Origin: an uncultured Candidatus Peribacteria bacterium
Lineage (GTDB): Bacteria; Patescibacteriota; Gracilibacteria; Absconditabacterales; Absconditicoccaceae
NCBI GenBank assembly: GCA_964418415.1
Contig: CAYQLB010000003.1
Coordinates: 12,618-76,617, forward strand
DNA length: 64,000 nt
Direction of reading: 5' to 3'
Below the pieces are notes generated by a model. It saw nothing but the letters and a program-made list of their open reading frames with translations, was not told the DNA's origin and made no database searches. Position 1 is the stretch's first letter; every line of letters begins with the position of its first letter. The translations under genes and the position numbers were made by a program. Shown here one piece after another: positions 2,284 to 63,195 of this stretch.

Positions 2284-4032
2284 ATGACTAATATCGAAAC
2301 ATTAAAAACTGAGGTGGATCAGGTAAAAATCGATCTGGATGCTTGTAAAGCAGAAACCTCTGAAGAAATCAAGAAATCCAAAGCGGAGGCAGCTGTTCTT
2401 AGAACCGAAGTTATAGAAAAGAAAGTAAAAGCCGCCAAAGAAGAGATCATCGCAAAGATTACGGCGCTTGAAGCCAAGACTGATGCGACCTCAAAGGCAG
2501 AAGTTATCGCATACAAGGCTGATCTTGCTACGATTGAAGAACGGTTGACAAGCATAGATGCTTCAAAAACGGAACTTGCTACGCTTCAGGCTACGGTTAC
2601 TACGCCAGAGCCTGCTATAACCGAAACCACAGATAAAAAAGATGAAACAAAAACGGATGATACCGATAAATCATGGATCAGGAAACAGCGGGATGGTGTG
2701 ACGAGCAAAGAAGAATGGAAGACAAATACCTGAGCGAATGTCGCCCGTATAGCATGAGGAATCGGGATAGTAGCATTAGGTGTTCGAGGGATCAAAAAGC
2801 TTTTTGGTATAGGTAAAGATAAAGAAAAGAAAGATAATTCATGAGACGAAAAGAATACAGAAGAAACAAAAGAAAAAAAATGAAATTCGTGGCGGAAATG
2901 GCTACTTGGTGGATGAATATTGGCGGCAGGGTGATATGGTCTCTATAATCTATTGAAATGAAAATGATTGAGTTTCGAAGATTCGCTTATCGCAGCAGAA
3001 GCTGATCTTGGAACTATTTCTGAATCAGATGAAATAAATATCGATAGATGAAAAATCAGCTATGAAGAATCAGTTAAACAAATAAAATCATATGGATTGG
3101 GTACAAAGATAGATAAATGAGGGTTGTTTAGTGCAAAAAAGATAGAAGGATTGGATATAAAATTCTCAGACTATAAACAGCTTATTCACGCTGCAAATCT
3201 TGTAAATTATATCAAACATAAATATACATGAAGATGTGAAACAGATACGCCTTTTTACACCAAATCATCTACATGAGATATTTATATCAAAATTAAAGAT
3301 TGAGAAAATAATACCAAAGAAGAAGAAATTATTAGTGGTGGTATTCGATCTACATTATCAAGTATATGCCCTGATGTTCTTAATGGCATATTTACCGATA
3401 CGAAGAATAAAGATAAATTTCTTGCTTATTTAAACAAACAAGGTGTTTGGAAAGAATGAAATGTAGTTGCTCCTGATGCTAAATGAGACAAGATACAAGA
3501 AAAAATGAATGAGGTTTGGCAAGAAATAGTCGATACACCAACCGAATTTGATCCATTATGAAAAGAAAGAGGACAAATAATTGCTACAGCAAATACTACG
3601 GATAAGACTGAGTATACGATTAAGAGTCGATGAACCCCACAACAGGAAACAGAAGTGAAAATGGAGGCTAATACTGATGGTACAATTACTTCATGAAAGA
3701 TAGATGGTTTGTCGATAACATTCACTACTGTGGAAGAATTATTAAGAACCGCAAATTTGATCAATAAATTAAAATATCAATACCATGTCGTAACACCATT
3801 ATTATTGGGACCAAATGAAGAAGCATTTTATCGAACGAGTTCATTTTGAATAGTATGATGACATCCATGAATATATGTTGATAATTCAACAACGTGGACT
3901 TTGGATGATAGAGTTATCAAAAAAGAGACATTAGAAAATATATTCCCTACGATTCTGAAAAACAAAGAAATATTTATTAAATATTTAAATGGATTGAAAG
4001 ATGAAAATGGTAAGGGATTGCGAGAAAAATAA
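2284..4032 (+). CDS. coiled-coil membrane protein (582 aa), short paralogue of the next gene
   Basis: ATG 2284 to TAA 4030, with more than 20 in-frame TGA. It has a ~110-aa heptad-rich N-terminus. A TM hairpin follows (ANVARIAGGIGIVALGV / Lys-Glu linker / SWWKWLLGGGILAAGGYGLY, with CGA/CGG read as W). The ~400-aa C-terminal domain has no motif I recognise. Confidence 0.7.
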
Positions 4033-4190
4033 TACAAAAAGTAAAAAAACCTTTTAAATACATATAAAGTATATATATCGTAATATGTCAATAAATATTC
4101 GTTATCAGACGGGTATTTTTTTGTTTTAAAAGGCACTTTCGGGTATAATAATTATAGAGTATATGACCTTTAATTTTGAGACCAAAGAGT

Positions 4191-7100: not shown

Positions 7101-10100
7101 AATCGATCTAAAGTAAAGGATATATTATCAAGGGCTGATATAATGGATGATGTTAAATCTCTATCTTCGGTAGATGATGTAAATTTGCTTGCCAAAAATT
7201 TATGATCTTCTCTCGATAATGTTGAAGTTATTGATGATATTTTTGCTCAAAATTGTAAAAATGTAATTGCTTCTTTGGATGAACTCAAAAAATCATCTGG
7301 TACATGATTTAATGGTGTTATGAACTGATTGTTAGAAAAAATAGGAATTTCAAAAAAAGTGTTGAGTACTACAGAAATTACTGATGAAGCAAAAATAATT
7401 AGTGAACAGATGACTAAAATTTCTGGAGTTGCTGCTTTGGATGATGCAGCAAAAGCTAGTTTAAATATCGAGGTAAATGCAACGGCATATAGTCATCTTC
7501 TAGAAGGTACAGATAATGTAGATGATTTGACAAGAAAAATTATAGAAGAATGTAGTTTTGCAGATCATAAAGATTATTTTATAGATACACAAAAAATAGC
7601 TGAAGCAAAAGCATATGCACAATTTCTTATGGATAGTAGAAAAGTAGGTACAGCAATAGAATATACAAAAGACTTAACGCCGATAAGTAGTGTACTGAAT
7701 ATGGGAGATTATAATAAGTTAGCAAAACTCATCAATAAAGGAAAATCAGATGATATAGTAAAATTCTTAACAAAAAGGTTGGATAAAGAATGAGTAGAAA
7801 ATGCTTGAGAATTAGCACAAAAATTTGCCGATCAGACAAAAGGTATGCAAAATGCAGACAAAACAGAAGTTGCCAAGATAATAGGATTGAGTGAAAAAAA
7901 TACAGAGAAAGCAATCATCGCTATCACCAAGTCTCTTGCACAAGATAAAGTATTTGTTACTAGTATTTTAGCGCTTAATTGAGATGCAAAAGCAATTACT
8001 GAGGCATTAAATAAAAAATGCTGATTGATTTGAACTAATGTTACTATAACAGAAGAGTCTGAAATTGTCCAGAAGCTTGTTAATTGTGAAAAAGCTCAGG
8101 ATGTGGAAAAAACATTAGAATATACTTCCAAGGGATTAAAGCGAAGAATTGGTATTTCAGGTGTAACTGCAGCTCTTGCTATAGCAGGGGCAGTGATGTC
8201 TATCGTAGATACCGTACATGCATTCAATATGATAGAAACCACCAATAATGAAGATCTTAAAGATGTATATAGACAAAGAGGGTATGTAAGTGCATGATTT
8301 GCAGCTTTGGATACTTTAGTGGCAGTAGATGCTACCTGTGAATTGGCTTATTTAGCTTTCAGTGTAGGTCAATGAGCATTTATGTCTACAGGAGTAGGAG
8401 CAGTAATAATTATTGCAATACAAGGAGTTAGATATATGTATGATCAATATTCCTTGTGAGCGGAATTCCAAGCAAAAAATGCAGAAGATCGAAGAAAAGA
8501 ATGACTTTGATTATATTTTATATGGTATTATAGAAGTGGAGGAAAAACATCTTGAGAAAACGTGAAGGATTTTTTTGGTTCAGCTACAGATATGCCATTA
8601 GAAAAAATAGTAGAGTGATTGATAGATCAGACGTTATGAATACAGGAATGAGCAGGGACTCCAGATCAGCAGAGAGTGAAATGATATATGAAAGAATATA
8701 TGACAAAAAAATATGACAATAAATTAGATCATATGGAATCTGCTTTTTCTATGATGTCAGAAGCTTTGGAATATGCAACGTTTGCAGAATATATAAACAA
8801 TATCAAAAATTGAATAGTGAAACAAGATCAGATAACATGAGATATGGCAGATTTTATGTCAAAATATCCAGTAGCAAGCAATCAAGATAATCTTATAGCA
8901 TATTTCAATAAATACAAGGATTTCGTTAACGTACAACAGACACAGAACTTAGAGAAATATAGAGGTAATTTGCAGAAATATTCTGACCAAGAATTGACGT
9001 TTATCTATGAACAATTAGGAAGATATAATGATTATTATATACTTTCAGTAGAGTGAGTTAGTCTATTAACCGCAGTAAGAACACTATTAAAAGAAAAAAA
9101 TATAGATACATCAAAATTACAATTAAATTTTGAAGAACCACCAATCAATAGAGAACAGATAGAAAAATTTATTGCTACGTTAGGAGCAGAAGGAAATCTT
9201 CAAGAATCCATTGGAGATGCTAGTGAAGTGAAAGGAAAAATAGATCAAGTTATCATCAGTGATGAAGATCTTATAGAAAAATATTGAGCGGTACCGACAT
9301 TAGAGATATATACTTTTCTTAAGATAGCGAGAATATTTGGATATGCAGGAGAAGCTGATTTAGATGGAATAAAAATATTTCTCTCTGAAGAGAGTAAAGA
9401 TAAACAAGGGATCTACCGAGATTGAAATGAATGGAGGATAAATAATACGGCATTTTGGTCAGGATTTCGAAATAGATTTGGAAGAGATAGAGCAATATGA
9501 ACATGAGATAATGCAGTAAAAAATCTGAAAGATAATATAGATAAGATGGATTTTGATGATAAATATCTCTGAGCATTTGATTCTGCTGGTATCAAAACAA
9601 AATTAAATCAATTAAGGGAAGATATAGATAAAAAGATAGAAGTAGATAAAATGCAGAGCATTGCGCCTGTAAGCAAAAATGAGATAGTTGAATATCTCAA
9701 AAACAATAATTGAAAATATACCTTATTATCTATACAATTATTAAGCAGACTTTTGCAAAAGAATGCTGTTAAAAATTCAGGACATTATCTTTTTAAATAT
9801 GAAAACAATAAGATAATAGCTCTTCCATTAGATACACATGCAAAAGAAAAATTATTTTTTGTAGATGAAATAGATACATCATCGGAATCAAAATTTAAAT
9901 ATGAAATAATGACTGAATTGGATGCTAAGCCAATGTTCAATCAATTACAAGATCTCAGAAAAATCATTAATCTGGATGATGACGAATTCGATGTAAAACA
10001 AAATCCTGCGATAGAAAAGATTATTGCTGACAAGGAAATGGAAATCCAGATATTCATGAGTAATCTCAATAATTATGATAAACCGAAACAAAAAGAGTTA

Positions 10101-10601
10101 TATTATAAAAAATTAGAAGAGATTGAGGCATTTCATCAATCATTTTTGATTTCATTCTTATCACAATCTGCTGATAATACATTCTCGAACGATGTTGACG
10201 AGGAAAATGCAGATGAAAAAATACTCCAATCAACCAAATACGGTGAGTGGCAGAATTTCAACAGTGTTATTGTTAATAAATACAAAAAAGAATATAATGT
10301 TTTGCAATTATCTGATGAAATTTTAGCTAAATTAAATGGATTAGAATGATGATTTGATTATGTTAATTATTATTATAGAGGCATTTCATTAGCTATGTTT
10401 AAATCATATGTATTATATCAAGAAAATGGTCAATTCCACGCACAAGGAGATCAAAATCTGGAAATAAACGAGTTAGAAAAGAATTTATGAGAGATAAAAT
10501 CCTATAAGGAGTATATGAAACAATTCAAATGAAAAGAAACAACTGACGATATTGCATTAAATTTTAGTGGTAAAATACAACAAATAAAGACAATAGAATA
10601 A
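4191..10601 (+). CDS. giant polytopic membrane protein (2136 aa) with N-terminal coiled coil
   Basis: I checked codon by codon that frame 3 has no TAA/TAG from ATG 4191 to TAA 10599. Five track ORFs (4176, 7329, 8103, 8844, 9753) are all in this frame and are joined only by TGA. The N-terminus is paralogous to gene 2284. There are several hydrophobic helix clusters (about 4950-5150, 5560-5640, 6480-6640, 8150-8440). Confidence 0.75.
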
Positions 10602-10622
10602 TTTTATTCTTTATATTTTATT

Positions 10623-11573
10623 ATGTCCGGAGATCAAGAAACAACGCAAGAAAATTCAGAAGAAACCACACCAGAAGACGAGTCATCAGAGATGACGATT
10701 GAAGATACAAAAGAGCAATTGGCTAGCATGTATCTCAAATTTCTCGATGAGAAAAAATGAGGGATATTGGGTACTACAGCATGATTGGGTGTTAATCTCA
10801 ATCCGCTTCAAAAAGACGCGGTAGAATATTTGACTACGGATAAAACAGTCCCAGATAAAAAAGATTTTTTCTCAAACATAGGGAAAAACATCAAAAAGAA
10901 ATTTGTAGAAAAGTTTACCGGATGAACTATGTTGGAATATAATAAAGCAAGTCTGAATAAAATGAAAGCTCTGATTACTCAATATAAAGATGATCAGACA
11001 AAATTGCAGGAGCTTATGACACAGATAGAAGACGGTATAGATCCTACCATAGCAGCAGTAGCTGCTACTACACCAGTCGTCGCTGATGCTGTTACACCAG
11101 ATACCAAAGTGGAATATGACGACAAAACCAATAGAGAGAAGGTATTAACCCAATTAAATAAGGTAATAGAAGAAGATAAGAAGGACCCTATCAATTATCT
11201 CTGGTGAGGAAAAAAGGATCCCGAAGGCTGATTAGATTGTTCGTGATTGATTTATTATACACTAGATCAGGCATGATTGAAGACGTCACTCGATTCTAGA
11301 TCGATGTTTAATGATTTCGATACCAAGAAATTGGAGCTCAAGGAGTGAACACATGAGGTAACTACCGATGTTTCTGATATCCAGGAAGGCGATATCATCC
11401 GATGGAATAGTACAAATAAGGACTATAGCCGAAGGACATGAGCATTTTATGCAGAGAACGGAATCAATGATGTAGATATTATCGACGATGATACAGTAAA
11501 ATCAAAATTCAGTCGATTATCGTCTGAAGCTAACCAGACAACATTCCTTAATTTCGTAAATGCTATGAAATAA
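10623..11573 (+). CDS. NlpC/P60-like cell-wall peptidase (catalytic His not evident)
   Basis: ATG 10623 to TAA 11571. Motif YLWGGKKDPEGGLDCSGLIYYTLDQAGL is the NlpC/P60 Cys box, with 4 of its Gly encoded by TGA. GDII follows downstream, but I found no HVG-type His. Confidence 0.65.
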
Positions 11574-11604
11574 TATCTTTTATCTTTTTCTCCACTAATC
11601 GTCA

Positions 11605-12687
11605 ATGACAGAGTGAGGCCCAATAGAAAAGAATCTATGATTGGATAATCTCCTTCAGGGTATCACCGGATCAACATCCGAAGAGGTTTTGGCATTGAAA
11701 GAAGAAATAGCTGAAAAATATATCGAAAAACTCAAGACAGAGAAGGGGGAGTGATTATGATCTTTGATTATTGGTGAAGGTAAATCATTGAAAGATTATT
11801 TGGTATCCAAAAATATAGGAGATAAAGTACGAGATAATATAAAAGGAGTGTTCCTCTGAGGACTATTTACCGCGGTTGATCAGAAATCATTCGAAATAGA
11901 TGGAGTAAAATATAATTCTATCTTCGATTATCTCAAACCAATGAAAGAAGAATTGGATGCAGCAAACACCAAGGAAGCTTTGGAAGAGTTAAAAGATAAA
12001 ATACTGAATTGAGTGACAATAGTAGATGATGATAATCAACAAGAACAACCACAAGACACAGAAAACACTACAGATATATTGCCTATATATACAAAGTATA
12101 AATATTTGAAGGTCGGGGGTATTGTTGCTAAAGAAGATATTACATATGTTGAAGCTAATGCTGAGAATATTGTAGAACATTTACAAACAAAGGGATCATT
12201 GAGTAAGATTGAGGAAATAAAGGATGTTGATGGTAATGTTGTATTAGAGTGTAGATGAAAAACTCCATATATTCATTCCAAGGCTGCTTCAGATCTTATT
12301 TGACTCTCTTTGTTATATTACAAAAAAACATGAAAAAAATTTCTTTTGGAAAGTGCATATAGGACAATAGATCATCAAGAAGAGCTTAAAGAAAAAAATG
12401 CGGCTACATGAGTACCTACAGCAGATCCATGATATAGTTGACACAATTTATGATATTCTATAGATCTTAGTCAAGAAACAAGGTATGATGTAAAAATCGG
12501 TGGTGTTGCTTGATTAAAAAAATTAGCCGAAATGTTTGATTTTCATCCAATATCGTCAGAAGATTGGCATTTTGATTATTCAGAATTTGTAGATAAATAT
12601 TATAACGACAAAGAAGCAAGGCTTCCAGAAGCACAGAAGTTAGATGATTTATTTGAAAATGAACAGGAATATCGTCAAGCAGCCTAG
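11605..12687 (+). CDS. peptidase M15 (VanY-type D-Ala-D-Ala / LD-carboxypeptidase) with N-terminal extension
   Basis: ATG 11605 to TAG 12685. C-terminal motifs are SAYRTIDHQEEL, PGYSGHNLGYSIDL (SxHxxGxAxD) and SSEDWHFDY (ExWH). Confidence 0.8.
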
Positions 12688-15371: not shown

Positions 15372-16682
15372 TTATACTTCGAGACTAAATTCACCTATTT
15401 TTGTTTCATCAATAGTGATAATAATGGATGCTTTTCCTGCTTGTTGTGCAAGAATAGCGATATCCATTTTACCGTTATTGATGATCTTTATATTAGAGAT
15501 GTCCGGTTTAAAAGTATCATTTGTTGAAAGTACCGTGAATGCAAATGGTAGTAGTCCTGAATATTTTTCTCATGTTTTTTTATCAGTGACTTCTATAATT
15601 AAAGAAGCCATTTCGCCGAATTTTAGTGGTGAATTAGTGACTAAATGGATAATGAGATTATTTTGTGTGAGAAAATGTTGAGCGATATCACTGAGGTCTT
15701 CCAAATTAAGTATAAGATCTTTATTGATAGATGTCTGGGGTAATATAATCGGTGTAGTTGGTAAAGTTGGTGTTGTTGGTAAAGTTGGTGTGGTTGGTAG
15801 AGTTGGTGTAGTTGGTAGAGTTGGTGTAGTTGGTAGGGTTGGTGTGGTTGGTTGAATTGGTGTAGTTGGTAGGGTTGGTGTGGTTGGTAGGTTTGGTTTA
15901 GTTGATTGAGTTGATGTAGTTCCTGTATTTTGACTACCTGTATTAGTTATTGGATGTATAGTATCTTCATCATCTTCATCAGTAGAGGTGTTTTTATTGT
16001 TATAAATATAGCATTTCACCTGTGCTGTGGTAAGGTCATCTCGACGATCAGACATTTTTCCTCTACCTACCCAAGCCATATCTCTGACAATGATTTTTTT
16101 CATAGATTTGTCGTAGTGAAGAACTTTGCCTACATGTCCGTATACTCAAAATCTACCTCAAGCATCATAGACAATCAATGCTCATTGAACTGGAGTTGTA
16201 CCTATTTTATATCAGGTTTCAGCAGCATTTTTACATCGATCTACAGCATTCCCTCACCATGTTCTTTGTTGGGTATTGTCATCGATAAATGGAAAAAATT
16301 CAGGAGAAATTCTCGCTGCTCCGTAGGTACAATATCATTTGGTGAATGTATTTTCTATATCCATACTCATATCCCATATAGAGATAATATTTCCTTGTTT
16401 GAGTGAGGTGCCTGGGTTTTTCATAGCTTCCACTAATGCTTGTGATACTTCACTACTATTGTTTCTATAGAGTTCTTCACTATATCCGGTAAGATTAGCA
16501 AAAAGTCGAGATCAAGAGATTAAGGTTAATAGTACGACCCCCATAAGTTCACCAACATGTATCAGGTGATGATGGAAATATTGATGGATATGAAAAATCT
16601 TATGCACATGTCTGTGTATGTGTTTTTTGATATGATTATGTATTCTGTGGTGAAGAGCTACGTGCTTCTTTATTTTTTTCAT
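15372..16682 (-). CDS. CHAP-domain peptidoglycan hydrolase with His-rich N-terminus and PT-repeat linker
   Basis: ATG at 16682, TAA at 15372-15374. CHAP Cys box FTKGYCTYGAARI and His box GVYGHVGKVL. Eight TPTLPT repeats. The C-terminal ~110 aa is an unknown domain. Confidence 0.85.
15751..15895 (-). repeat. 8 x 18-bp in-frame tandem repeat encoding (TPTLPT)n
   Basis: ggtgtagttggtaRRgtt units read directly. They translate on the minus strand to PTTPTL repeats. Confidence 0.9.
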
Positions 16683-16808
16683 GGCACGATAAAGGCTAAA
16701 GCGAGTAAACGTTCAAACGCATAAATGATGCAATATTTGTGTATACAGTATCATTTAGTCGCTCTATCGTTTAGTCCTTAAGTAATTATAGTCACAGAAG
16801 TCAGTTTT

Positions 16809-18274: not shown

Positions 18275-21200
18275 TTATTTTTTGTTGCTGTTATAAATAA
18301 ACTCTTTTACATCATCTAAACTGCTGAAATATCTTTCACTAGTGAATGTATAAGATGAATATCTACCATTAATATCCTTGAAGAAATAGAAAACCTTTTT
18401 ATTCGGTGCAGTGAATGGTGATGTTTGCCATATTCCATCGATGCGCGCATTTTTCCATCGAGCTAAGATAGGTTTAGCATTCGCATATTGTGATCCTGCA
18501 GGATTATTGATATCGATGATATATTTTAATGTATCCAAGGTAGGGAAATATTTAGGCACTACGAAATTCGTCGAAGTGAACCGTTGTGTTGCGCTATCAT
18601 AGGTGATAGTGTATCTTTTACCATTAGGCGCGGTATAGACACCATTATTGATTCGATCCATAATATCTATTCCTTCTTCGCCGAATTCATCGCTTTCATA
18701 ATATTCGTCAGCGAGATCATAGAGGTATTTCAATGCTTGCCATTCTGTATCATCTTCATCGTCGATATCATCCATTTTCTCTTCGAGCATAAGCATAAGG
18801 GTATTGAAGAATTCTTCTTCTTTGTCTCCTGCATAGAGATCTCTTAATGTTTCGAAGAGATAGACAACAATAAGTTTCTCAGTGTTTGAAAGATCAGTAT
18901 CGATATCGTCATAATCATCATCTACATCATCATCTTCTTCTTTGGTGGTAACTTTGAAAGTATCTGACTTACTATCGATAGTCAGCGTGCTTTCCACGGA
19001 ATCATCATATTCATCGCTTGAGATAAGCTCTATTTTTACTGTCCATCCATTCTGTACATATCACGTAGTTCCTACAGCATTTCCGCTGATGTAGAGCATT
19101 CCTCTATTAATGATTGCAAGTACTTGTGTTCCTGTAGAAAGACCACTGATAGTAATAGTATTAGACATATACGTTTCATCAAGGTCAGCATCATCGATAT
19201 CATTGAATGAAAATGTATTTGGTGTTGTATCCAATATTCCGCTATAGATAAATGATGATGTTGTGGAATATCATGAGTTTCCAAGATTATCTGTCGCTGT
19301 GACATACCGGTAATATACTCAATTGCTGAGAGTAAGGTTAGGTATGGTAGCTTGAGTAGTTGTTGTTGTAGATCACGATCGTCTGATAATAGTGAATCCT
19401 GTAGTATCTGATACATAATATCTATATCAAGAAATTCCCACCGCATCACCAACACCTGATCGGCTGAGAACAACATTTCCACTTACACTAGCTCAACTGA
19501 GTGGACTGCTAAGTGTAGGAGAGATAACCGTAGTGTCTAGATATACAGAGAGAGATGGAAGAGTTACCGTATCTCCAGAAGTATTCTCTAGAGAAAGCTG
19601 TACGGTTTTAAGTCCATCATTTCCCGTAAGTTGTGGATTAACAATAATATGTCAGGAGATAAGTCCTCCAGTAATACTATTTACTATATCAGATCATGTG
19701 ACTAGATATTTGTATGGTTGATTAGCTCGAAGATCTATTGAAGCATATGCTTTGACATATCGGTATGGCGTAACGTAATAACGATTTGTTCCTGTCAGTA
19801 CTGCTTGTCCTGAAAGTGGTGTGGTGATCATAAACGGTAAGATTTGGCTCATACCTGTGTTTCCTGCACGATCTGTGATAATAACATATCGGGTATAATC
19901 CAAAGCATTATTCATAGTATGTATAGTATATCCTGTATTTGTTGTTGTGATAGTGTGTTGATAACTTCAGGTTACATACAAAGTATACCCAGAAATTGCT
20001 GTTTCATCGAAGCCTGTCCATGAAAACGCAATATTGTTAGTTCCGGTGATATTGAGTCCGCTCGTAGGATAATTTGCCGTAACTGATGGATTCGTCATAT
20101 CTATAGTAAAGATCATCCCCGTAGAATTATCAGCAAGATCGTAGACAGTAAATATATAGGTTCATTCTGAACTCACTATTTCCCCATCAGTAAAGTTTCC
20201 ACTATAATAGGAAATATTCATTCCACTAACTATAGCTCCAGAAATATACAAATCATTAAAATTGATAGTAATTCATGTGTTGTAGTAACCTCCACTGATG
20301 ACATTACCGGATATTAATGACCCTAATGTAGTGCCGGTAAATACAGGTTTAATTTTATCTATAGTAAAGGTTATTCCTGTGGTATTTCCTTCATTATCTT
20401 CCAAAACGAAAGTATAGGATCCATCTCAAGTAATGAGGGCATTATTAGTATATGGAGTACTGTTTAATAGAGCTCATGAAATATTAAGTCAGGTGAACGC
20501 TATCCTGATTCCGGTATTATAATATCCACCATTAGTAATAATAGTTCCTGATTGTGTTGTTCCTGTAAAGTATAATCATGGTGTTCAAAATGAGAAGAGT
20601 TTAAGTGTTCCATTGGTAGAGAAAATACATTCAAGAGATGTATTTAATATACATCAAGAATCTATTGTATTTGGTGACCATGTGTTTCCGTCGATTGATT
20701 TTAATATACTAAGATATTGTCCTATAGTTCATGATAAGACTTGATAATATATCGTTCCTGTTCCTTCATTCATAGTAAGATAGGTTGATCCAGAAATTAC
20801 CTCTATAGTATCAAAAAATGTTGTAATCAATTGTGCTGATCATACATCTCATGTTGTTGCTAATTTGATTCCTGTAGTTATTTTTGTCGGTATATATACT
20901 GTACCATCTCGGTTAGCTCCAGAAATAGTAAATGAAGTACTTCAGTGTATTTCAAAATTTGTTGCTAAACGTAGATGATCAAAATAGATAGGGAATGTTC
21001 ATCCTATAGATAAAATGTTTCATGTTAATTTTGCAGAATTTAATCCTTCAATTCGTATATCATTATTTTGTGTGTAAGTGTCATAAGTAGTATATTGAAA
21101 AGATCAGTAGGCATTAGATTCAATAATGCCATTATCTCATGAAAAATAAATTATTCTATTTCACGTGGAATTTTGCATTAATATATTCCATCATCAAATT

Positions 21201-22909
21201 CAATAAACGATAGAATTCATAATGTTGTTATTATTGCTATTATCCAAGAATATTCATTGACCGCCGTTTCATGATAATATGCTTCAAGAGATAATATTTG
21301 CACTTGATCATGTAAAGACTATTCCTTCATTATAATTGCTGTTTATGACAGAATTTATGATTTGGGTATTGTTTGAGGTGTCTAATGTTATTCAATTATC
21401 TTCATTACTTGATAAATTACATGAATCAATAATAGTTCAAGAAGAAAAAGAAAGTAAAATACCATTACCATTAAAACCAATAAGTCCATTATTATTGAAG
21501 GTTGAATACATGATATTATTACTTGTTCATGTTTCAATCACTATTCAGACTCTACTGTTATATGTACTAGTAGAATGAGTGATGGTATTGTAATCACTAT
21601 ATGACATATATACTCCATGTCCCATATTTCCTGAAATTATTGCTCAGCTTATCGTATTATCAGATGAATTGGAAGTGAATACGATTCCATTTTTGGAATT
21701 GTTACTGATGTTTATAGATGTGAAGATATTGTCCATTGAATCATCAAGATATAATCATCCTTCATTGCTGTTTGAGACGATAATCATTCATGTATTGTTG
21801 TTTGAGTTATAGAAATGTACTCATGCATAATAATTTCCGTAGACATAGATTCACATCAAATTATTACTTGAAGAATTGTTGAAATATACTCACATAGCAT
21901 TTGCACTATTATTGGCAGTGATATCAATAAATGTATTATTGTTGGAATTATACGTAGATACATTGTGGTCTGTGTTGTTATAGGAATCTACATTAGTGAA
22001 TGAACTATTACTTATTCATTGTAAGGATACCCCTTTTCATATGTTTGATGAAATATCTATATCAAGAAAATTGTTATAGGATCATGTTAATAGTGATACT
22101 CCATGGGTATTATTGTTGCTATTTATACCACTAAATACGCTGTAGTTTATATTGTTAAATGCAATTCCATATACACTATTTTGATATGTTTGTACATTAT
22201 TCATGAAAATGTTGCTTACATTAAGACCCACTATTCCATTTGAATTATTGTGGAGTTGTGTATTTATAATATCCATATAAGATACTCCAGAAATGAGAAT
22301 GCCATATGCATTATTTGATCATGTCGTATTTTTATACGCTTGGAAATCTCTTACGGTTGTATTCATGCCGCCATCGAGGTAGATTCAGAAATGTCATTCG
22401 TTGTTCCCGTCTACTCTTATTTTTTCAATAATGATATGTTTGTTTCCATTACCTTTGATGATGGCTGGATTGGTCGTATTACCTGAAAGTGTGACTATTC
22501 CCGAACTAATCAATGCTACACAATCGTTGAGTGTAATCGGAGCTGTTACATCATAAATGTCAGAATCTATCACATAGATAGTGTTTGCTACGGTTGAAGT
22601 GGGAATCGTTCATGTGAATTCTACTGTCATTCATCCGTTCAAGCATGAACCAGAATTGTATCCTGTCCAATGCTGTGTATATGCGGTGTTTTCATCACCG
22701 CTTCCATAGAGCGCTCGGATGATATCATCATCAGTCGGTGCATTATCCCAAAATAATCAGCTGAGATAATTGGAATTATCTCGTGTGATAGTTCCTACCG
22801 TCCGTGTTGCTGCATTCGCGAAGAATGCATAGATTCACAAGAAAATCCCCATAGCGATAAAGAGGATGCTCATGAATTTTGAAACGGTTGATTGTTGTGT
22901 GTGTTCCAT
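18275..22909 (-). CDS. giant surface protein (1544 aa): signal peptide, Asn-rich parallel beta-helix repeats, Fn3/Ig-like modules, acidic tract, C-terminal domain
   Basis: ATG at 22909 (MEHTQQSTVSKFMSILFIAMGIFLGIYAFFANA). There are ~20 repeats of the type NNxxNGIxxxxSxNNxI (pectate-lyase/NosD-like). Fn3 signatures are VVLSWSGVGDAVGISGYRYYV and GVYYWYVTATDNLGNSG. An acidic run EEDDDVDDDYDDIDTD is present. Track ORFs 18275, 19694, 22082 and 22835 share the frame. I checked 18995-19500 codon by codon. Confidence 0.8.
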
Positions 22910-22949
22910 GATATGGTTGAAATGATAAATGATAATTTGGGCTACGCCC

Positions 22950-23083
22950 GTAATGAGACTTTGTCGGTAATGTGTCCTATCGGACGTAATGAATTGTAAT
23001 AGACCTTGAGTCGTAATTGGTAATTGATTACGCGACCAAAGGGAGCAAATTACGCGAAGCTCATTACATCGAAGATTTGTTAC
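22950..23083. repeat. GTAATG...CATTAC mini-hairpin array in a divergent promoter region
   Basis: GTAAT(G/A/T) at 22950, 22967, 22986, 22996, 23013 and 23020. Orientation then switches to (C/A)ATTAC at 23027, 23048 and 23062. The spacers are small palindromes (gac ttt gtc, gtcc tatc ggac). Confidence 0.8.
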
Positions 23084-23309
23084 ACGAACGCAGTGAGTCA
23101 TATACTATTATATACGCAGAATTGAAAATTGCGAAATGTGTCCTATTCTGATATATATTCAACTTGCTTTTTTTATAAAAAGTTATGAAATATGTTAACA
23201 TACAAAACCATTGAAACGTCGAGGGAAAAACGTATTTACAATACAATACCATGTATGATGTGAAATACATAGTATAAAATATTTTTTTAGCATATGTAGT
23301 GATATTATT

Positions 23310-25676
23310 ATGGCTGATCAAGTACCGCAGATGCCGCAAACGCCGATGCAGCAAGATCCTCAAATCCCTGTACAAGCGCAACAACAAATCCCTGGGGCAC
23401 CACTCCAGCAGGCTCCTGTCGAACAAGCTCCTCTTCGTCCTCAACAAACGGCTAATGTCACGAAGCCTACATCCAAGATTTCCATGAAGGGAATATTGAT
23501 TTGATGTGGTCTTATCTTTATGTTCGTGGTCTGAGGATTGTCACTTGTGTTCTATAATCTTATGAACAATCCGACGCAGCTTTCGAGCGTAGGATTAGAT
23601 CCAAATACTACAAAGACCTTATTACAGACATTTTCTGTGTTATTTTTTGGTCTTTTGACCTTCCTTGGTATAGGACTCCTCATTGTCAATCTCTATAGAG
23701 TGATTACCGTAAAAAATAAATCGAAAATCTGATATATTTTTGGCGCTTTTCTTGGATTTATCGTATTTATTTTGGCTATCGTTCTCTGATCGAGAATCAT
23801 TACCCTCGTGAGAAATTTTTCTGTAGAAAATATTCTGGATAGTGATAAACTTATCATGCCGTATATTCAGCTCAAAGATAAGCCGACCTATACACGTGGT
23901 GATGTGGCACTGAAACTGATCGCTCCGGCAACGATGCGATATACACTCAATAGCAATTATTTTAATTCTCAAATAGTTCCTCCGCTCTGACAAGTAAATT
24001 TCCAGACCATAGTCTTGGATTGTGGTAATGGTCAAAAACTTAACCTAAATTTCACGACCTTCCAATTTGAAGGGTCATGTATCTACTTCAAAAAATGAGA
24101 ATATCCACTAAATCTCGAGACGAGCTATATCAATATTCCGACTTCGGAGAAAATAGAAAAAACCTTTCCAGCAGGATCTATTGTTTTCGATTCTGAGATC
24201 AATGTCGGACCGACAAAAGGCAAACTTACCTTCAATGATGCTAATACGGAGATGATTCTTGGAAAAACACCGAGCAAAGTAATGTTCGATGCAAGTGCAG
24301 TATTCAAGGATCTAAGTATGACAGATTATAAAATTATCTGGGATTTTAATGGTGATGGTGAGGCAGACAAACAAAATAATGCTTCTACAACCTATGTCTA
24401 CAATGAAGCAAAACTCTACAACGTATATGTAAGATTCCCTACGCTCAATAATTATATTTATACATTCCCTGTCAGAGTAGAACAATCTGATGTCCCTGTA
24501 TGTGAAGTGGTTGTTACTCAGGCGGAAGGAAAAAATTATACAGTCACAACCAATTTCTTCGACAAAACCGTAAATATCACTAATTATCAATTCGATATTC
24601 TTAATAGAAATAATAAAGATAAAGTTATCGAAACGATAAGAAATAATAATGGTAGTTTTACCTATATTTTCCAAAACGCTTGAACGTATGCTATCCAAAA
24701 CACTTTCCTTACAGAAGATGATAAGCAAGGGCAATGTGAAAGTGATGATATCCAAATAGGAGTGACAGATTTTCAAGTAAACTATGATAGCTATTTCAAA
24801 TCACCGAATTCTCCACAATTCAAAAAAGTAGGTAATGAAGGTATAGTATTTTGGAGTGGAGAAGAATTGATACTTACGGAGATCCCTACGGTCATAAAAT
24901 TACAAATCAATCAAATTATTCCAAATTCTACGACTGCAGTCAAAAAAGTGCAGATTGATGGAAAGCAAGTACTTTCTACTGATCCAAATAGTTTCGAATT
25001 CACTATTTCTGATAACGCAGACCATGAAGCAAAACTGCTTATAGAGGATACGCCGAGCGGTGCCAAGACAGAGATACTTATTCCTATCAAGATACATAGA
25101 CCAGATATTATCGGAAAGGTGATTGTTACTCCAGGGACCGTAGGTACAGATCCATTCAATGTCACTTTTGATGTTTCTACGACGGTTCTCAATACTACAG
25201 GAGATGAAATAGTATCCTTTACTTGGGACTTTTGAGATGGTAGTCCTGTGAAGAAAAATTTTTCTGAATCTATCATCACGCATACCTACAGATACGATAT
25301 AAACAACGAGAATGGGACATTCCATCCGCTTATCACCATAAAAACGAAGAAGGGTCGTGAAGTGACCATTACCACGGAAAATGATATTATCGTCAAAAGA
25401 GCTAATCAGACATTAAATATCTTTATAGATTCTCATCCTGCACAAGTAGCGAATATTGGCGATAGAGTAGGATTCTCCTTAGAATTCAACGGCTTGCCTA
25501 CAGAAATAGCACGAGATTTTTGAGATGGTAAAACACTGACATGCAATACTAGGCAAGAATGTGGTACAACGAATCATGTCTATGTATCGCCAGGAACATA
25601 CCTTATCAGAGCATCAGTTTCTTATGAAAATCAACCGACAATTGACGGCACAATTACCTTAAAAGTAAATCCATAA
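23310..25676 (+). CDS. membrane protein with Gln/Pro-rich N-terminus, 3 TM helices and PKD-type repeats (788 aa)
   Basis: ATG 23310 to TAA 25674. Six track ORFs share one frame and are joined by TGA. PKD signatures are IIWDFNGDGEAD, FTWDFGDGSPV and IAWDFGDGKTL..NHVYVSPGTY (the last W is CGA). Confidence 0.85.
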
Positions 25677-35633: not shown

Positions 35634-38276
35634 TTAGTTGATAATCGCGAAGTTGACAATGAGATACCCAGTTCCAAGTACAAGTATTCATAACAACATA
35701 TAAAATAAGCTATTTTTGATGTTTTTGATTTGAGCTGGATCATCTGGCTTGGTAAGTAATTTGACGGTTTGGATAATGATAATTACCAAAATAACCAATG
35801 ATGCTATTCCCAAAGCATAGTTGATGATTTGGTAGAGAATAGGGATATTCTTATCAGCCAATATTCCCGATCAAATCTCTCAGAGATTTGTAATACCATT
35901 TGGATTAATTACATCGCTCTGTTTTCCATATATCGCTTGGACTATTTGTTTTGCTCCGATGATAATAAACATAGAGATAACATTCCGTCCGATCAATGTT
36001 CATGCTTTCTTTTGAGCATCACTATCGCTTCCAAAAAGGAAGGTGATGACGCGACTTACGAGAATGACGAACATCGCACCCAAGACAAGGTAGATAGCAA
36101 ATTTGATAAACGGATAGATAATTCTATCGTAGAGTCAGGTTGCTATATTGGTACCTACAATTTCTCCCGTGGTGAGCATATCGTAGACGTTTTGTCCAAT
36201 AAACTTAGCACTCATGATGACAATGATACCTACGATACCAAATACTATATATCTTGTTCCTTCTTTGACTGCATTTTCATCGCTCGAGAACATGAGTTTA
36301 TAAAATCCGAGGATAGCAGAAAGGATACCTATGATGATGATAAGGGGAACAAGGACGTTCATGATTTTGTTGAAAAGAAAGTTTTGGAGTCCTTGAGTTC
36401 CTATTGCGCCTTCCGCAGCTTCGAGGTTTTGATTAACTCCTTCTATACTCCTACTGAGTGCAAGATCAAATCTCCTTGCTTCTACAATTTCAAAGGTTCC
36501 CGATCGTGTATTATTAGTACCAGTTACATCAGTAATGCCGACACTTCCCGGATTGATACTACATACCATAATTTTGGTACCGAGTGCTTGTGTGAAGATA
36601 GGTTTGATCCTGATGTTTACACCGACTTTTGTTCAAGCATTCAGAATGAATTGTTCAAGGATATTAGAACTATATACATTAATATCTCCTCCTTGAGCTT
36701 TCCATACACACGTTAAGAATCCTGCTGCGAGATTGGTTCCATTTACTGGTGTATCTCCTTTATTCTTAAACAGTATACTAAGTTCTGGGCTCGATCCTTG
36801 AGCAATCAGATATCCACTACGTACAGGAGATTCATTGATAGCGATATCTACACCAGCAACCAATCCTCCGATATCTGTACAACCAGGGTATTTGTAGGTT
36901 TGTCGATTACCATTGAGTATACCTCCACTACAGGATAAAATGGTAGAAAAATCATTACAGCTTTTTGGATATTCTACTCCAGTAGAAGAATAGGCTCATA
37001 TCTGCGTTCCTTCCGCTAATGGTGCTCATCGAGGAAGTACACATCCACCACAACTTGGATAGAGTCCAGCTTGTGAAGTAACGATTCCTCAGGTAGTGTA
37101 TCGTGAACTATTTGTACACGTGAGTTTTATTTTGACACTTTCACATCACAAACTTGCTGTAGGAGTATTGGAAGTATATCCATAGATAAATTGCATATGA
37201 GGGACATATGACCCTCGGATATTAGGACATGATCCCGAAGCAACATTTTGACATCCAGTATATAGGGCACCAATATTTCCTGATCGTGTGCCATTGGTAC
37301 ATTGGAGTAAGTGAGAAAAAGCATTACATGATTCGTTGAGTGCTGCGAAAGCATGTGGTTGTGTATATTTAGTTACATAGGTTCCGTGAGGCAAGGTACC
37401 CGAACCAGAGATGATATTTGTACATGGAGTCTGTCCTACGGGAGTACATCCACTATAGAGGGAAAGTTGATTTCCTCAACTTCGCTGTCCATTGATACAA
37501 GTAAGTGGAGTAAGTAGTCCAGTACATATCCCTGATGGGGCAGTATATGCAGGGAGCTGATATCCATGAGCAGTCATTTGGTTGGTCCATATATTCAAGC
37601 ATCAAGCATATGTTCCTGTTTGGATACATCAACTAACCAGACCAGCTTGTCCAGCGGTACCATTTCCTGATCGCGTGCTATTAGTACAGGTGAGTGTTTT
37701 TTTTAATGTGTTGCAAGTTTGTCATGGTCATGGAGTATTAGCTGTATATCCTATGATCGTTTCTCCATGATCTTTGATCGTATTAGTCCAGACATCCAGA
37801 CATTGCATCCGTGCTTGATCTGTACATTTTCGGTATTGGTAGAGTGATGGAGTAATACCTCACGTAAAAACACCATTCAAACACTGTAAGTTTTGACTGA
37901 GTTGTTGACAGGTCTGGGTATAGGTATTCGTAAGTGATTTGTACAAGATTTTATATTCCAGATGGTTTGCTCCTGTTGGTGTTGTACAATTTGCCCATGT
38001 ATGGGGAATACATGATGGGTATTTGTACGTATTGATATTTGCTATGCTTCAGCTGATGCAAGTAACAAGCGCTTTGGATCAGGTACAGCTCTGGGTATAG
38101 GTAGCTTCAGCTATTGAATAGCCAGTCTTAGATTGTCCATCAGCAAGCATAGAAGGATTCCGTCCCATAGGCAGAATGCAGTTCTGTGCATACGAAATGG
38201 CAGCTAATGAGAAAATCATGATCAAGATGGCTCCGATCCATTTACTTACCGTGATAGAAAGTGTTCTTGTATTCAT
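35634..38276 (-). CDS. fusion protein: signal peptide + 7 Cys-rich ~55-aa repeats + three tandem T4SS-pilin-like TM hairpins
   Basis: I checked codon by codon that the frame is open down to TAA 35634. The start is either ATG 38276 (MNTRTLSITVSKWIGAILIMIFSLAAISYAQ) or ATG 38324. 38276 avoids overlapping the upstream gene's stop at 38281. Repeat and hairpin motifs are given in the finding for this gene. Confidence 0.75.
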
Positions 38277-38280
38277 CGTA

Positions 38281-39309
38281 TTATTGATGTGATAAAACAG
38301 TTTTTTTAGCAAAGAACGATCCAATCGCCTTACCGAGGAGAAGAAGTTCTCTCGCGATAGGGAGATGAGGAAGATGTTTCAGCTGTATCGCCATAATAAG
38401 ATATCTCGTACTTATGAGACCAAGTCATACATAATATGTCCATACGGTGAAATCAGGTTTGAGAAGATAAGAGAGTAAGATAATTATTCCTATCCCAAGT
38501 ATATATTCTATAATGAGTAGAGTATTGTTGTGAATATCTATAATGCGACTATAGACTTCTTTTTCTTTGGCGATATCACCGGATAGCGTATATTCGTCTC
38601 CATTGAAGAAGAGACGACCGATTGTTTTTCCCAAGTACGTAATGAGTCAAGTGATGTATCATCGAAGCTCTTCAGGATTTTTAGTAAATAATATATTGAG
38701 ACGTTGTTTTATGGTTATAGTGAAAACATCAATATCGGACATAAGTGAAGCAACTCTTAAAATAATGATAATGAGAATCGTAGTACAGATCATAATATTA
38801 CCTGACATACATCCTATCATAAATATGATTCGTCGAAGGAGTGACTCTTTGATCCATCGATTTGGGTTCTCGAAACTATGTATGTTATACCAGAGATGAA
38901 TATTATATATGGGGAGATATTTGAGAAGAATATCTTTTTTGTTACCTTCGATAGTGTATTCTTCGGTAGTTCATCCCGTTCATTTCATAAGACTGATATC
39001 TGAAAGAATACTCACTACACTGATAATGAGCAATGTAATGAGGATAAATATACTTACAGTATACGTTACACTCAAGAGTTTAGTAACGAAGAGATAATTT
39101 AATATGCCTGCAGTAACTGTAATAAGACCAAAGAGTAAGGTAATATATCCAAATTTGATGTAACCACGAATAAATGCTTTATCGCTATCAGAAATGTCTC
39201 GATTGTTCTTTTGGAGTATATTTTGCACCAACGGAGAAAAAAATAACGCTGCTGCAAGCGAAAGCTGTGTTTTGGTGTTTGTATCAAATGCTTTCGTTTC
39301 TTCGACCAT
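38281..39309 (-). CDS. polytopic membrane protein in the T4SS-like module (function unknown)
   Basis: 342 aa. Track ORFs 38425 and 38980 share one frame. Hydrophobic helices include GYITLLFGLITVTAGILNYLF, VSIFILITLLIISVVSIL, GNIMICTTILIIIILRV and ILGIGIIILLSYLL. Stop TAA 38281. Confidence 0.65.
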
Positions 39310-39451: not shown

Positions 39452-41500
39452 TTATTGTACATCCGTTGTAATGAATGCTCTTTCTTCCGGAGATGCTAAT
39501 ATTTTTACTCCGACATGTTGACTTCCTGCAAAGATAAGACCTTCTCCAATTCCTGATGCAACGAGTCTTCTCTGTTCTGCTTCCGACAATCAAAGAAGTT
39601 CATTCAATGCTTTGATGGATGTTGTGGATTGTTTCAAAAGTATCTGTAATGCACAGTTAGAGATAATAGGTTTCCCGTATTTGCTTCTTACGAAATCTTC
39701 GATATCTTGAGATATTACTGTAATACCAAGTCCGTATTTTCTCGCTCTTTTCGTAAGTCCAAAAAGGAATTCTGCAGAGGTGTCGTTTTGGAACATGATC
39801 CATGCTTCATCGCAAGCGAGCATTCTTTTTTTCTTGTGTGATCTGACTTTAGTCCAGATCCGATTCAGGACGTTGAACATCGCAGGAGTCTTTAACGCAT
39901 CTTCCAAATCTCTAATACTAATGACGGTAAGCTTGTTGTTGATGTCGATATTTGTGTAGTTATTAAATACTTTTCCGAAAGTTCCATTTACATATTTACT
40001 CAATCTCAATGCTAATCTATCGCCACCATCCATACCTTCAAGTACATTCATGAGATCGCCCATGATCGGTGGTTGTTTGCCTTCATAAGTGTCATTATCC
40101 AAAGAGAATCATTTGAGTGAATAGGTACTCTGCAATGCTTTATCGAGTAATGCTTCTTCTTCTGGTGTACATCATCAGATAAGAATTTGAATCATTCATA
40201 TGAGACTCATGATATGAGATCTGAGAAGATCTCCCTTACCATATTCTACATCTTCGATTTTTGGTGGAATATCAAACGGATTGAGATATTGCTGTGAATT
40301 AGTTGCGATGTTTACATAGGTACCGCCTACTTTTTCGCAAAGTGCTTTATATTCATTTTCTGGATCGATAATGATGACGTCGATACCATTGATAAGATAT
40401 CTTAAAGTTTCTAATTTTACCGTAAATGATTTTCCAGCTCCGGAGGTAGCCAAAATAACACTATTCATGTTCGGTAACTTTTGATTGTATCTATCGAAGA
40501 TAACTAATCATCCGGTATGGAGATTTACCCCATAGAGTATTCCTGTTTCTTCGACCATATCGTTGGAGATAAAAGGGAATCCACCAGACAGTGATGAGGT
40601 TACCGAGCTTCTACTAATTCATAATTCATCTGAACAGATAGGCAATCCAGAAACGAATCATTCATCCATTCTTTGGATAGCGTTCTTGATTCTGATTCCG
40701 TATCCTGATATTTTTTGTTCCATTTTTTTTCAAGTTTCTTTTAGCTTATCTACATCATCATCATAGATATTGATATAGAAAGAATTTTCGAAATATCTCT
40801 CTTCTCTGGTAGTGAGTTTTTCTCTAATCATCTCTACGTCTCTGTACTGTTGTTCTATCTCAGTATCGAGCGTAATTCCTTTTTGCATAGCATCCTTCAC
40901 TTCCGCTTTCAATTGTGTTGCTCTGTTTTTGAGCATAGATTGAATCGCTGCATCATCCTCAGGATAGATAAACCAACTCATATCTCGCTTTGCGTGAAAT
41001 CCAAAAATATCTCTTGTCCGTAATGCATCGATATAGGATGGATAACTTTGAGCGTAATATGTTTTCCCCATGAGTCAGGAAACGTTATAATGCGTAGGAG
41101 TGAATTCTCGATAGGAAGGTGCAATATGTGTTTTGTAGTCACTCACGACAGTAGTATATTCTTTCTCTACATCAGCGATAAATTGTCTCAATTTGCTAGT
41201 AAGAAGCTTATCGTTGTATTCTTCATCAGGAAGTTCTAAGATATATTTTATCTGATCCCTCAATTCTTTGTCTTTGATTTCTCCATTTTCTGGCAAAACA
41301 TCTTTCGCTTTGTTTCCCAAGAGCGTTCATGATGTAGGAGTTCATTTTTTTTCAAAGAGACTAGGAAAGATTCCTGCGAGTAATTTATCAAAAAATCACA
41401 TCTTTTGATGTTTTGGTGTTTGAAATTCAGGAAATCCACCATCAGCAACATATCCGCTGTAGTTCGTATCATAGACGACATTCGAGATTATTTCGTTCAT
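39452..41500 (-). CDS. virB4: VirB4/TrbE-family type IV secretion ATPase
   Basis: 682 aa. Walker A NSVILATSGAGKSFTVK, IIIDPENEY, Walker B-like RMLACDEAWIMF, ITVISQDIEDF. Four track ORFs share one frame and are joined by TGA. TAA 39452. Confidence 0.88.
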
Positions 41501-61611: not shown

Positions 61612-63195
61612 ATGCCAAACGAAATCACTAAAAGTATTTTGGAAATCGATGATTTGCAGGGCATAAGCCCCAATTTTGAGCAACTCAAGATTCTTCCTCA
61701 AGAAACGGCTGAAAAGATTGAGACGCTAATTTTCTCCAAAGAAAAAAATACCTTGAAAATACTTACGACAAATAATTTTTCCGACGGACTCGCACAATTA
61801 CTCAAAAGCTTAGAGGAAAAGTGATATACATACGAAGTATTTTATACATCTCCAACAGGATTTCATTATGCATTGAGTCGATATACTGATATGGAAGGTA
61901 TCGCTGAACAAAAAAGAAAATCCGAAACAGAACAGAAACAGGCCGCAGGCAAGTGAGCTATTGCTATGATACAGAAAATTTTTGAAACGAGAGATGCTAT
62001 GGAACCGGGAGATTTTATTATGGAGCTTATTAGATTAGCATTCCAGACATGAGCATCTGATCTCCACTTTCAACCACAGGAAGATGGAGTAATTGTGAGA
62101 ATCAGAATTGATGGTGTGTTACAGGAATTGCTTGAATTTACTCATCAAGACTTCATAAAATATCTTCAGAAGATGAAGTTTATCTCAGGGACTAAGATGA
62201 ATATCGACTACTTACCGCAGGATGGAAGATTCTCTTTCGAGGCGACGGATGTTCATGGAGAAAAGAGAAAGGTTGATGTGAGAATTAATTTTATGCCGGG
62301 GGTAGAATCTGAAAGTACCGTCATTAGATTCTTGGATCCGACCAAGGGTATCTCTACGTTTGAAAATATCGGATTTACAGAAAGAACTTATGAAATATTA
62401 AAAAGGAATCTCGAAAAAAATACGGGAATTACTATTTTTACCGGACCTACAGGTTCGTGAAAGACAACAACGCTCTATACAATCCTAAATACCTTGAATG
62501 ATGGAAAAAGAAAAATCATCACCCTTGAAGACCCCATCGAATATGAAGTGAACGGTATCCAGCAATCACAGATCAATTATAGTAAATGATATACTTACGA
62601 GATCTGACTCAAAGCTATTTTGAGACACGATCCAGATATTATTCTAATCTGAGAAACGAGATCACAGGAAACCGCAGAGATTGCAATCAATGCAGCGTTG
62701 ACCTGACATTTGGTATTTACTACTTTACATACGAATTCTGCTATAGAATCTATCCCAAGACTTACAAGTATGGATGTCAAACCATATATGTTGGCGCCAT
62801 CCTTGAATCTAATTGTAGCACAGAGGTTGGTCAGAAAAGTATGTCCTCATTGTGGAACTAAGAGGGATGCAAATTATAGTGAACAAGCTGAAATCAAGGA
62901 GGCACTCAAAAAAATGAAGGATCTCGACCCAAAATTGGATATTCCATTTGATGGAAAAATTCCTGAGGTGGTAGGGTGTGATCAGTGTAATGGTAGCGGA
63001 TATCAATGAAGAATAGCAATCATCGAAACATTCGAGATTACTGATGATATTAAGAAAATGATTGTGGATAATAAAATCGGTATTGATCTTTATGCCAAAG
63101 CAAGAGAGGAGTGATTTTTGACACTCCAAGAAGATGGTATTATCAAAATGCTCAAATGAATTACCACGTTGGATGAATTGAGAAGGGTTTTATAA
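61612..63195 (+). CDS. GspE/PilB-family type II/IV secretion (type IV pilus assembly) ATPase
   Basis: [16 protein letters not shown], Walker A FTGPTGSGKTTT (TGA 62458-62460 = Gly), [26 protein letters not shown], tetracysteine [16 protein letters not shown]. The start is ATG 61612 or TTG 61573. Confidence 0.9.

Follow-up and report, generated by a model that had tools for sequence, protein, structure and literature searches.

The 64-kb stretch of contig CAYQLB010000003.1 analysed here (64,000 nucleotides from an uncultured Absconditabacterales (SR1) bacterium; hereafter the window) carries, on the minus strand at 35634–38276, a gene whose product joins a predicted extracellular, cysteine-rich ectodomain to three successive hairpins of the pilin family of type IV secretion systems (T4SSs). 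The open reading frame (ORF) encodes 880 residues followed by a TAA stop when read with genetic code 25, in which its 18 in-frame UGA codons specify glycine. On balance we favour the view that the product is a VirB2-like, pilin-family subunit of a chromosomal monoderm-type T4SS, with a surface-exposed host-contact domain; we infer, that is, a VirB2 in the form of a covalent trimer to which a candidate adhesin is fused, and every statement on function made below is to be understood in this sense. The interval is exactly that given for a pilin gene in an earlier note on this DNA, which was right in its coordinates and had stated neither the strand (minus) nor the code (25).

Pilin identity and predicted topology of the three hairpins

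The Pfam family T4SS_pilin (PF18895) matches the whole protein at 36.1 bits against a curated cut-off of 26.6. The cut-off is also passed by two of the hairpins taken singly, hairpin 1 (aa 627–702; 36171–36398; 28.2 bits) and hairpin 3 (aa 812–880; 35637–35843; 29.1 bits), in agreement with the VirB2/TrbC-like identity proposed in the earlier note. The TrbC/VirB2 family (PF04956; cut-off 27.9) gives a sub-threshold score of 17.5 bits in hairpin 1 and is passed by the relatives P0078 (28.8 bits) and P0220 (32.3 bits), whilst hairpin 3 has a sub-threshold match to the NCBIfam family Mbov_0395, a ‘pilin-like conjugal transfer protein’ family of a Mycoplasma integrative and conjugative element. 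Hairpin 2 (aa 708–783; 35928–36155) is counted as a pilin domain because it aligns with hairpins 1 and 3 in hhalign comparisons and because hairpin 2 of the relatives P0078 and P0211 matches PF18895. In P0211 each hairpin alone lies above the cut-off (34.4, 44.7 and 29.0 bits for hairpins 1, 2 and 3, respectively), and in P0078, which is collinear over its whole length with the C-terminal part of the window protein, hairpin 2 is the best PF18895 stretch. Over three matched stretches each, P0211, P0220 and a paralogue on a Peregrinibacteria-type contig reach 77.6–89.6 bits with this family, and P0078 reaches 53.1 bits. With deeper alignments, hhalign relates hairpins 1 and 2 with a probability of 96.2% (E 2e-9), hairpins 1 and 3 with 97%, and hairpins 2 and 3 with 95.4% (E-values 2e-8 to 1e-10); the deeper alignments were required, the pairs 1–3 and 2–3 being weak (~16% probability) when only 19 SR1 sequences were used. 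By these comparisons all three are shown, at the level of sequence profiles, to be mutually homologous T4SS_pilin hairpins; ‘pilin’ is used here as a statement of homology and not of demonstrated polymerisation. The 880-residue protein has no match to TrbL/VirB6 or PrgH in Pfam or NCBIfam at E ≤ 1, and a scan of the 64-kb window with the hairpin profiles, which are narrow and would miss divergent members, found no second pilin gene.

Each hairpin is predicted to be a pair of long hydrophobic helices with a short charged loop between them, and to have its two ends outside the cell. The three loops quoted in the earlier note are all present, each flanked by two hydrophobic helices: MFSSDENAVKEG (aa 662–673; AlphaFold2 (AF2) helices 627–663 and 667–702), LFGSDSDAQKKAG (aa 747–759; helices 708–748 and 753–783) and LLTKPDDPAQIKNIKNS (aa 840–856; helices 813–841 and 847–879), the six helices being 29–41 residues long. 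The full-length AF2 model (mean predicted local distance difference test score, pLDDT, 54.7) contains six long helices, beta-rich repeats and a β-sandwich, and that of the stand-alone relative P0078, built from a 40-sequence alignment, has three hairpins with a pLDDT of 71.7 and a predicted template modelling score (pTM) of 0.59. A cleaved signal peptide and an even number of transmembrane (TM) helices would leave the loops inside, with the ectodomain, both inter-hairpin linkers and the C-terminus on the outer side. The distribution of charge, with lysine and arginine at the loops and their flanks and with net acidic inter-hairpin linkers, both in this family and in the sister family described below, agrees with a VirB2 topology repeated three times. 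Hydropathy, AF2 helices and charge pattern are in accord on the three TM–loop–TM units which the earlier note had described.

Ectodomain, conservation and gene context

The N-terminal part begins with a predicted Sec signal peptide (aa 1–30; 38187–38276), as the earlier note had supposed; this is a hydrophobic segment ending in AAISYA/QN, called from hydropathy and a conserved A-x-A-like end in the alignment, without a dedicated predictor. It is followed by seven cysteine-rich repeats, delimited by Cys spacing and leave-one-out profiles, at aa 33–89 (38010–38180), 97–151 (37824–37988), 159–217 (37626–37802), 226–277 (37446–37601), 285–342 (37251–37424), 350–409 (37050–37229) and 412–466 (36879–37043), which between them hold 28 of the 30 cysteines of the protein in units of the form C-x(25-32)-C-x8-C-x(15-21)-C. 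These seven repeats, also reported in the earlier note, are real: each is recovered by a profile of the other six with 30–46 bits (E 2e-8 to 3e-13), against a best score of 4.7 bits among 200 composition shuffles of the repeat region. The second of the examples given there needs correction, the true reading being CVLPRGAPL and not CVLPWGAPL. A DNA tandem-repeat scan found no DNA-level tandem repeat and pairwise identity among the seven is 19–46%, so the repeats are old and not an artefact of assembly.

The repeats fit no known Cys-rich extracellular module (Sushi/CCP, TSP1, EGF-like or others) in profile and structure-sequence searches: aa 31–466 gave no Pfam match of note at E ≤ 10, and the repeat profile had no match among PDB sequences. 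A distant 2688-residue repeat protein has a sub-domain TSP1_CCN signal, the sole hint of a known module; a Sushi or TSP1 identity, having no profile support, was dropped. The number of cysteines in homologues is always 4n+2 (6, 10, 18, 30, 34 and 38 in proteins of ~505, 573, 697, 880, 960 and 1032 residues, respectively), which corresponds to one to nine repeat modules plus the pair in the β-sandwich, as expected of disulfide-bonded extracytoplasmic modules. The 4-Cys repeat also occurs as a mobile module in giant secreted proteins of these lineages that have no pilin part (P0066, of 2688 residues, P0143, P0147, P0166 and P0185); as many as 16 stretches are matched in them, and the repeat is combined there with PG_binding_1, Kre9_KNH Ig-like and DUF5722 domains.

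Two further elements, missed in the repeats-then-hairpins layout of the earlier note, lie between the repeats and the first hairpin. An Ig-like β-sandwich of ~135 residues (aa 467–600; 36477–36878), with the Cys pair C523/C572, is indicated by AF2 strands, which have pLDDT values of 57–78 here and in the beta-rich repeats, and by its Foldseek neighbours (FnIII, PapD-like and MG-type Ig-like domains), which identify it as a generic Ig-like sandwich only; relatives of 420–460 residues that lack the Cys repeats keep it (match to profile positions 565–954). The second element is a helix (aa 601–626; 36399–36476), seen in the AF2 model and hereafter denoted the RFD helix, in which R602, F603 and D604 are invariant in the alignment and which in the stand-alone relatives is located at the mature N-terminus. 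As a possible signal-peptidase site the V-E-A|RRFD junction was rejected, there being no hydrophobic segment ahead of it.

Some 33 full-length homologues (865–1032 residues, 45–97% identity) from independent metagenomes and metagenome-assembled genomes (MAGs) all keep the fusion; a single-sequence locus scan finds only 14 close relatives. Together with conserved virB4 synteny, these copies show that the gene is not a chimera, a possibility that the earlier note had raised, and the comparative genomics which that note suggested finds both the fusion and the gene order kept in SR1 homologues. In one SR1 MAG (L021; GCA_026397515.1, 5001–7696) the orthologue is annotated as two overlapping ORFs of 583 and 337 residues. 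What splits it is a frameshift halfway through the β-sandwich (aa ~549–555), off the module boundaries; this is a sequencing error or a pseudogene, and not evidence for separate parts.

When the full-length profile was compared with 1.84 billion representative proteins (E ≤ 1e-3), 752 matches were obtained, some of them to the Cys-repeat part only. Dozens of proteins of 300–340 residues match the last ~280 profile positions in one stretch and have the layout signal peptide, RFD helix and three hairpins; other matches bear unrelated N-terminal extensions. A Peregrinibacteria sister family comprises triple pilins of ~310 residues in at least 127 clusters at 90% identity, labelled ‘pilin’ or ‘hypothetical protein’. 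The earlier note had regarded a covalently triplicated pilin carrying a display domain as an unfamiliar arrangement; the fusion is indeed real, but the triple pilin is not unique, being the standard form in a whole clade, and stand-alone versions of ~300 residues are frequent in Gracilibacteria, SR1 and Peregrinibacteria. No published description of an intragenic tandem or triple pilin was found in the literature searched for the Pfam family and these lineages.

Comparison of the two families by hhalign gives scores of 78, 92 and 101 for hairpin n with hairpin n and of 38–58 off the diagonal, and it follows from this matching by position that the triplication predates the split between Gracilibacteria/SR1 and Peregrinibacteria and that the three positions are not equivalent. 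The triple hairpin is thus shown to be an ancient triplication in which each hairpin has kept its own identity. Within SR1, identity is 78–84% in the hairpins, 54% in the repeats and 51% in the β-sandwich; by this measure the SR1 ectodomain, with one to nine repeats according to species (seven here), is shown to evolve faster than the pilin core, and the ectodomain fusion is an SR1-specific elaboration placed ahead of a widespread triple-pilin core. On a Peregrinibacteria-type contig (L019, 8001–10379) two triple-pilin genes, of 311 and 480 residues, are adjacent, the longer paralogue having a helical N-terminal extension of ~230 residues, a different ectodomain; the pair lies close to rpmH–rnpA–yidC and is origin-proximal. 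No virB4 is present within 8 kb of these genes at this, the only Peregrinibacteria locus examined.

In the window, virB4 lies two genes upstream of the fusion gene on the same strand (39452–41500; 682 residues); the ATPase is assigned by the Pfam families P-loop_TraG, DUF87 and AAA_10 and, as the monoderm CD1110 type, by NCBIfam NF045971 (conju_CD1110; 346.3 bits against a cut-off of 325). Between the two, likewise on the minus strand, a 342-residue polytopic membrane protein (38281–39309) belongs to no Pfam or NCBIfam family and has same-position homologues at L001 (E 7e-128) and at the distant L002 (E 1e-30); it may be a VirB6 analogue, perhaps the missing one of the Gracilibacteria-type T4SS. 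The order virB4, polytopic membrane protein (336–342 residues), fusion gene, (secG), SBP-like gene is found at L001, L020 and L021, and linkage to virB4 holds at all six SR1/Gracilibacteria loci examined (among them L001, L002/L003, L004, L020 and L021), including those at which the stand-alone triple pilins adjoin virB4 (L002/L003 and L004). The other neighbours are housekeeping genes, including secG and genes for a protein with an SBP_bac_5 domain, for an M50 peptidase (assigned from synteny with L001/L021) and for a PriA_C-like protein.

Possible function and rival explanations

The chromosomal T4SS of Patescibacteria is derived from MPF-FATA (PMC12102498) and is of the monoderm type, with arrays of VirB2-like pilins, unlike other monoderm systems, and with no PrgB-like adhesin detected (PMC12102498, PMC10633639, PMC12857230). 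It is essential for epibiotic growth of Southlakia, the one species tested (PMC10633639), and the arrays comprise six essential pilins in Southlakia epibionticum ML1 and 2–11 genes in 383 assemblies (PMC10633639, PMC12102498, PMC12857230). A host-contact pilin fits this published picture, in its essentiality, its VirB2-like pilins and its want of a detected PrgB-like adhesin. In the mechanism that we propose, the signal peptide would be cleaved to leave the ectodomain outside the cell, and the six helices would cross the membrane out–in–out three times, each hairpin with both its ends outside and its charged loop inside. By analogy with VirB2, the protomers would form a pool of subunits in the membrane, which the VirB4 machine would extract or organise into the extracellular part of the T4SS, whether conduit or pilus-like; a protomer's three non-equivalent hairpins would serve as a single covalent building block. 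The ectodomain would then point outward as the host-contact (adhesin) element that otherwise seems to be wanting in Patescibacteria T4SSs.

A bolder and unlikely, though not idle, extension of this mechanism is that the covalent triple hairpin forms the asymmetric unit in a VirB2 filament or conduit of heteromeric type, made by a monoderm T4SS, and that every protomer bears a disulfide-stabilised adhesin; these adhesins would radiate to give a ‘bottle-brush’ pilus with which SR1 seizes or taps the host. If so, the divergent array pilins of Saccharibacteria and other candidate phyla radiation (CPR) lineages would, by Rosetta-stone logic, co-assemble in fixed stoichiometry and would not be alternative antigenic variants. 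More generally, a pilin-family subunit linked in threes, with non-equivalent positions since before the Gracilibacteria/Peregrinibacteria split, constrains models of the extracellular part of the T4SS, and the covalent triple pilin suggests a mode of assembly for the multi-gene pilin arrays of other CPR lineages. The SR1 ectodomain, evolving fast and variable in its number of modules, is a candidate determinant of host recognition in a lineage with predatory members.

The protein fits the T4SS_pilin family in its profile match, its hairpin architecture and its gene context, and it departs from the feature of one small hairpin per polypeptide. [quoted passage not shown] Canonical VirB2/TrbC/TraA pilins (PF04956) resemble the window protein in their helix–loop–helix hairpin, Sec-dependent insertion, outward-facing ends and position beside virB4. 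They differ in being single hairpins of ~70–120 residues from diderm systems with VirB5, VirB6–10 and similar components, whereas the window protein, from a CPR organism that is monoderm, is 880 residues long with three hairpins and is sub-threshold for PF04956 (17.5 bits). The stand-alone triple pilins of Gracilibacteria and Peregrinibacteria (~300–340 residues) align end to end with aa 599–880, RFD helix included, and share the virB4-linked position (at L002/L003 and L004), and their three hairpins are positional orthologues of those in the window protein. Cys-rich repeats are missing from them, as in most cases is the β-sandwich, and some paralogues have other N-terminal extensions. With the pilin arrays of Patescibacteria the protein shares PF18895, the neighbourhood of a monoderm-type VirB4, here probably chromosomal, and the bringing together of several divergent pilin units. 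The array pilins are, however, separate genes, whilst here three domains stand in a fixed and ancient order behind an ectodomain of ~600 residues that is predicted to be exported, and intragenic tandem pilins go unmentioned in the papers on Patescibacteria T4SSs (PMC10633639, PMC12102498, PMC12857230). In Rickettsiales the extended VirB6 proteins, likewise polytopic membrane components of the T4SS, bear large extensions that are hydrophilic (PMC12857230), but the window protein has no TrbL/VirB6 match and its TM part is made of pilin-type hairpins.

Several points weigh against a host-contact pilin. Hairpin 2 of the window protein alone has no Pfam match, and in the full-length AF2 model the hairpins reach a pLDDT of only 35–45. 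The P0078 model, compared with the PDB by Foldseek, returns non-significant helical bundles and G-protein-coupled receptors (E ≥ 0.1) and no solved pilin, and the triple-hairpin profile has no match among PDB sequences, where solved pilins were not recovered. A covalent trimer has no obvious fit to the layered lattices with five-fold symmetry seen in solved conjugative pili, and we know of no experiment that shows pilus formation by any Patescibacteria VirB2-like protein. For the ectodomain, Pfam and PDB sequence searches recognised no ligand-binding family, and its candidate role as an adhesin is suggested solely by its location, modularity and faster evolution.

These points leave room for a different, possible but rather doubtful, reading, in which the triple hairpin is a non-polymerising membrane component of the translocon, standing in for VirB6 or VirB3, and the ectodomain is a surface receptor or anchor. 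Six TM helices and a core of ~300 residues approach the size of VirB6, the fixed order and high conservation of the hairpins would suit a unique structural position better than a repetitive filament subunit, and the pTM of 0.59 obtained for P0078 suggests a defined intramolecular packing. Gracilibacteria are reported to be without VirB6 and to have VirB3 only rarely near virB4 (PMC12102498), and a pilus is normally absent from Gram-positive T4SSs (PMC12857230). Yet the homology is to the pilin families PF18895 and PF04956 and not to TrbL/VirB6 or VirB3, helices of 29–41 residues extend beyond plain TM spans in the manner of pilins, and the separate, conserved polytopic protein encoded between virB4 and the fusion gene is a more obvious VirB6 analogue.

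Two other explanations have much less in their favour. If the product were a polyprotein, proteolysis would free three pilins of ~80 residues and a secreted Cys-rich protein; this we regard as improbable, since the linkers are conserved and devoid of cleavage motifs. The search for processing sites between modules, called for in the earlier note, favours an intact fusion: neither inter-hairpin linker has a conserved A-x-A or other recognisable motif, the residues that are conserved in the linkers (L715, Y716, P722–K725, N797 and L798) are of a hydrophobic or structural kind, and linker 2 has 71% identity across the family. Canonical VirB2/TraA are, it is true, made as propilins and then processed, and the signal-peptide cut in the stand-alone relatives would expose RFD as the mature N-terminus. 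Pilins are also separate arrayed genes in other CPR lineages (PMC12102498), but the order of the fusion is older than the Gracilibacteria/Peregrinibacteria split, and no linked protease gene was seen at the loci scanned. The remaining view, that the pilin similarity is spurious, drawn by hydrophobic low-complexity sequence in the six-TM anchor of a surface protein, or that the ORF is an artefact of assembly or annotation, is close to refuted and retains very little probability. The window hairpins score just 2–3 bits above the Pfam threshold, weak profile matches are drawn by TM helices, and the gene is in two pieces in one MAG (L021). The relatives, however, lie far above the PF18895 threshold (53.1–89.6 bits) and also reach that of TrbC, linkage to virB4 is found at six of six SR1/Gracilibacteria loci (L019 being without virB4 within 8 kb), and more than 30 independent copies are full length; the split copy is a frameshift within a folded domain, and there is no DNA-level repeat able to mislead an assembler.

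Genetic code and other features of the window

The fusion gene starts with the ATG at 38276, 4 nt past the stop of the upstream gene, and ends with the TAA at 35634–35636. Under table 11 the interval 35634–38276 falls into fragments on both strands, and its minus-strand frame is interrupted by UGA alone, at 18 in-frame codons. At the corresponding positions homologues, which where named are Absconditabacterales or candidate division SR1, have glycine in 156 of 324 aligned cells and tryptophan in 92; the glycines directly support the recoding of UGA as Gly, and the tryptophans stem from database entries in which UGA had been rendered as Trp. Public SR1/Gracilibacteria protein sets thus contain false tryptophans at glycine sites (28% of the cells examined), and for code-25 lineages both profiles and predicted structures will be degraded by them. 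P0001 (97% identical to the window protein), which stood in for it as a query, itself has Trp at the UGA sites. ARAGORN detected no tRNA gene, and hence no tRNA-Gly(UCA), within the 64-kb window, and a promoter and terminator scan was uninformative.

Elsewhere in the window, genes on the plus strand at 2284–12687 encode a pair of very large coiled-coil/TM proteins, of 582 and 2136 residues, and immediately after them an NlpC/P60 peptidase (10623–11573) and a VanY-type D-Ala-D-Ala carboxypeptidase (11605–12687), possibly a module for cell-wall attack or a surface module. On the minus strand, a CHAP-domain protein (15372–16754) is His-rich at its N-terminus and contains a series of tandem PTTPTL repeats, and a 1608-residue protein (18275–23101), with a very high content of Asn, Ser, Thr and Gly and with repeats that look β-helix-like by eye, is a probable giant surface protein. 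A PKD-domain membrane protein (23310–25676, plus strand) and a T2SSE/PilB-type ATPase (61612–63195, plus strand; 357.7 bits) indicate that the window also holds part of a type IV pilus or type II secretion-like system.

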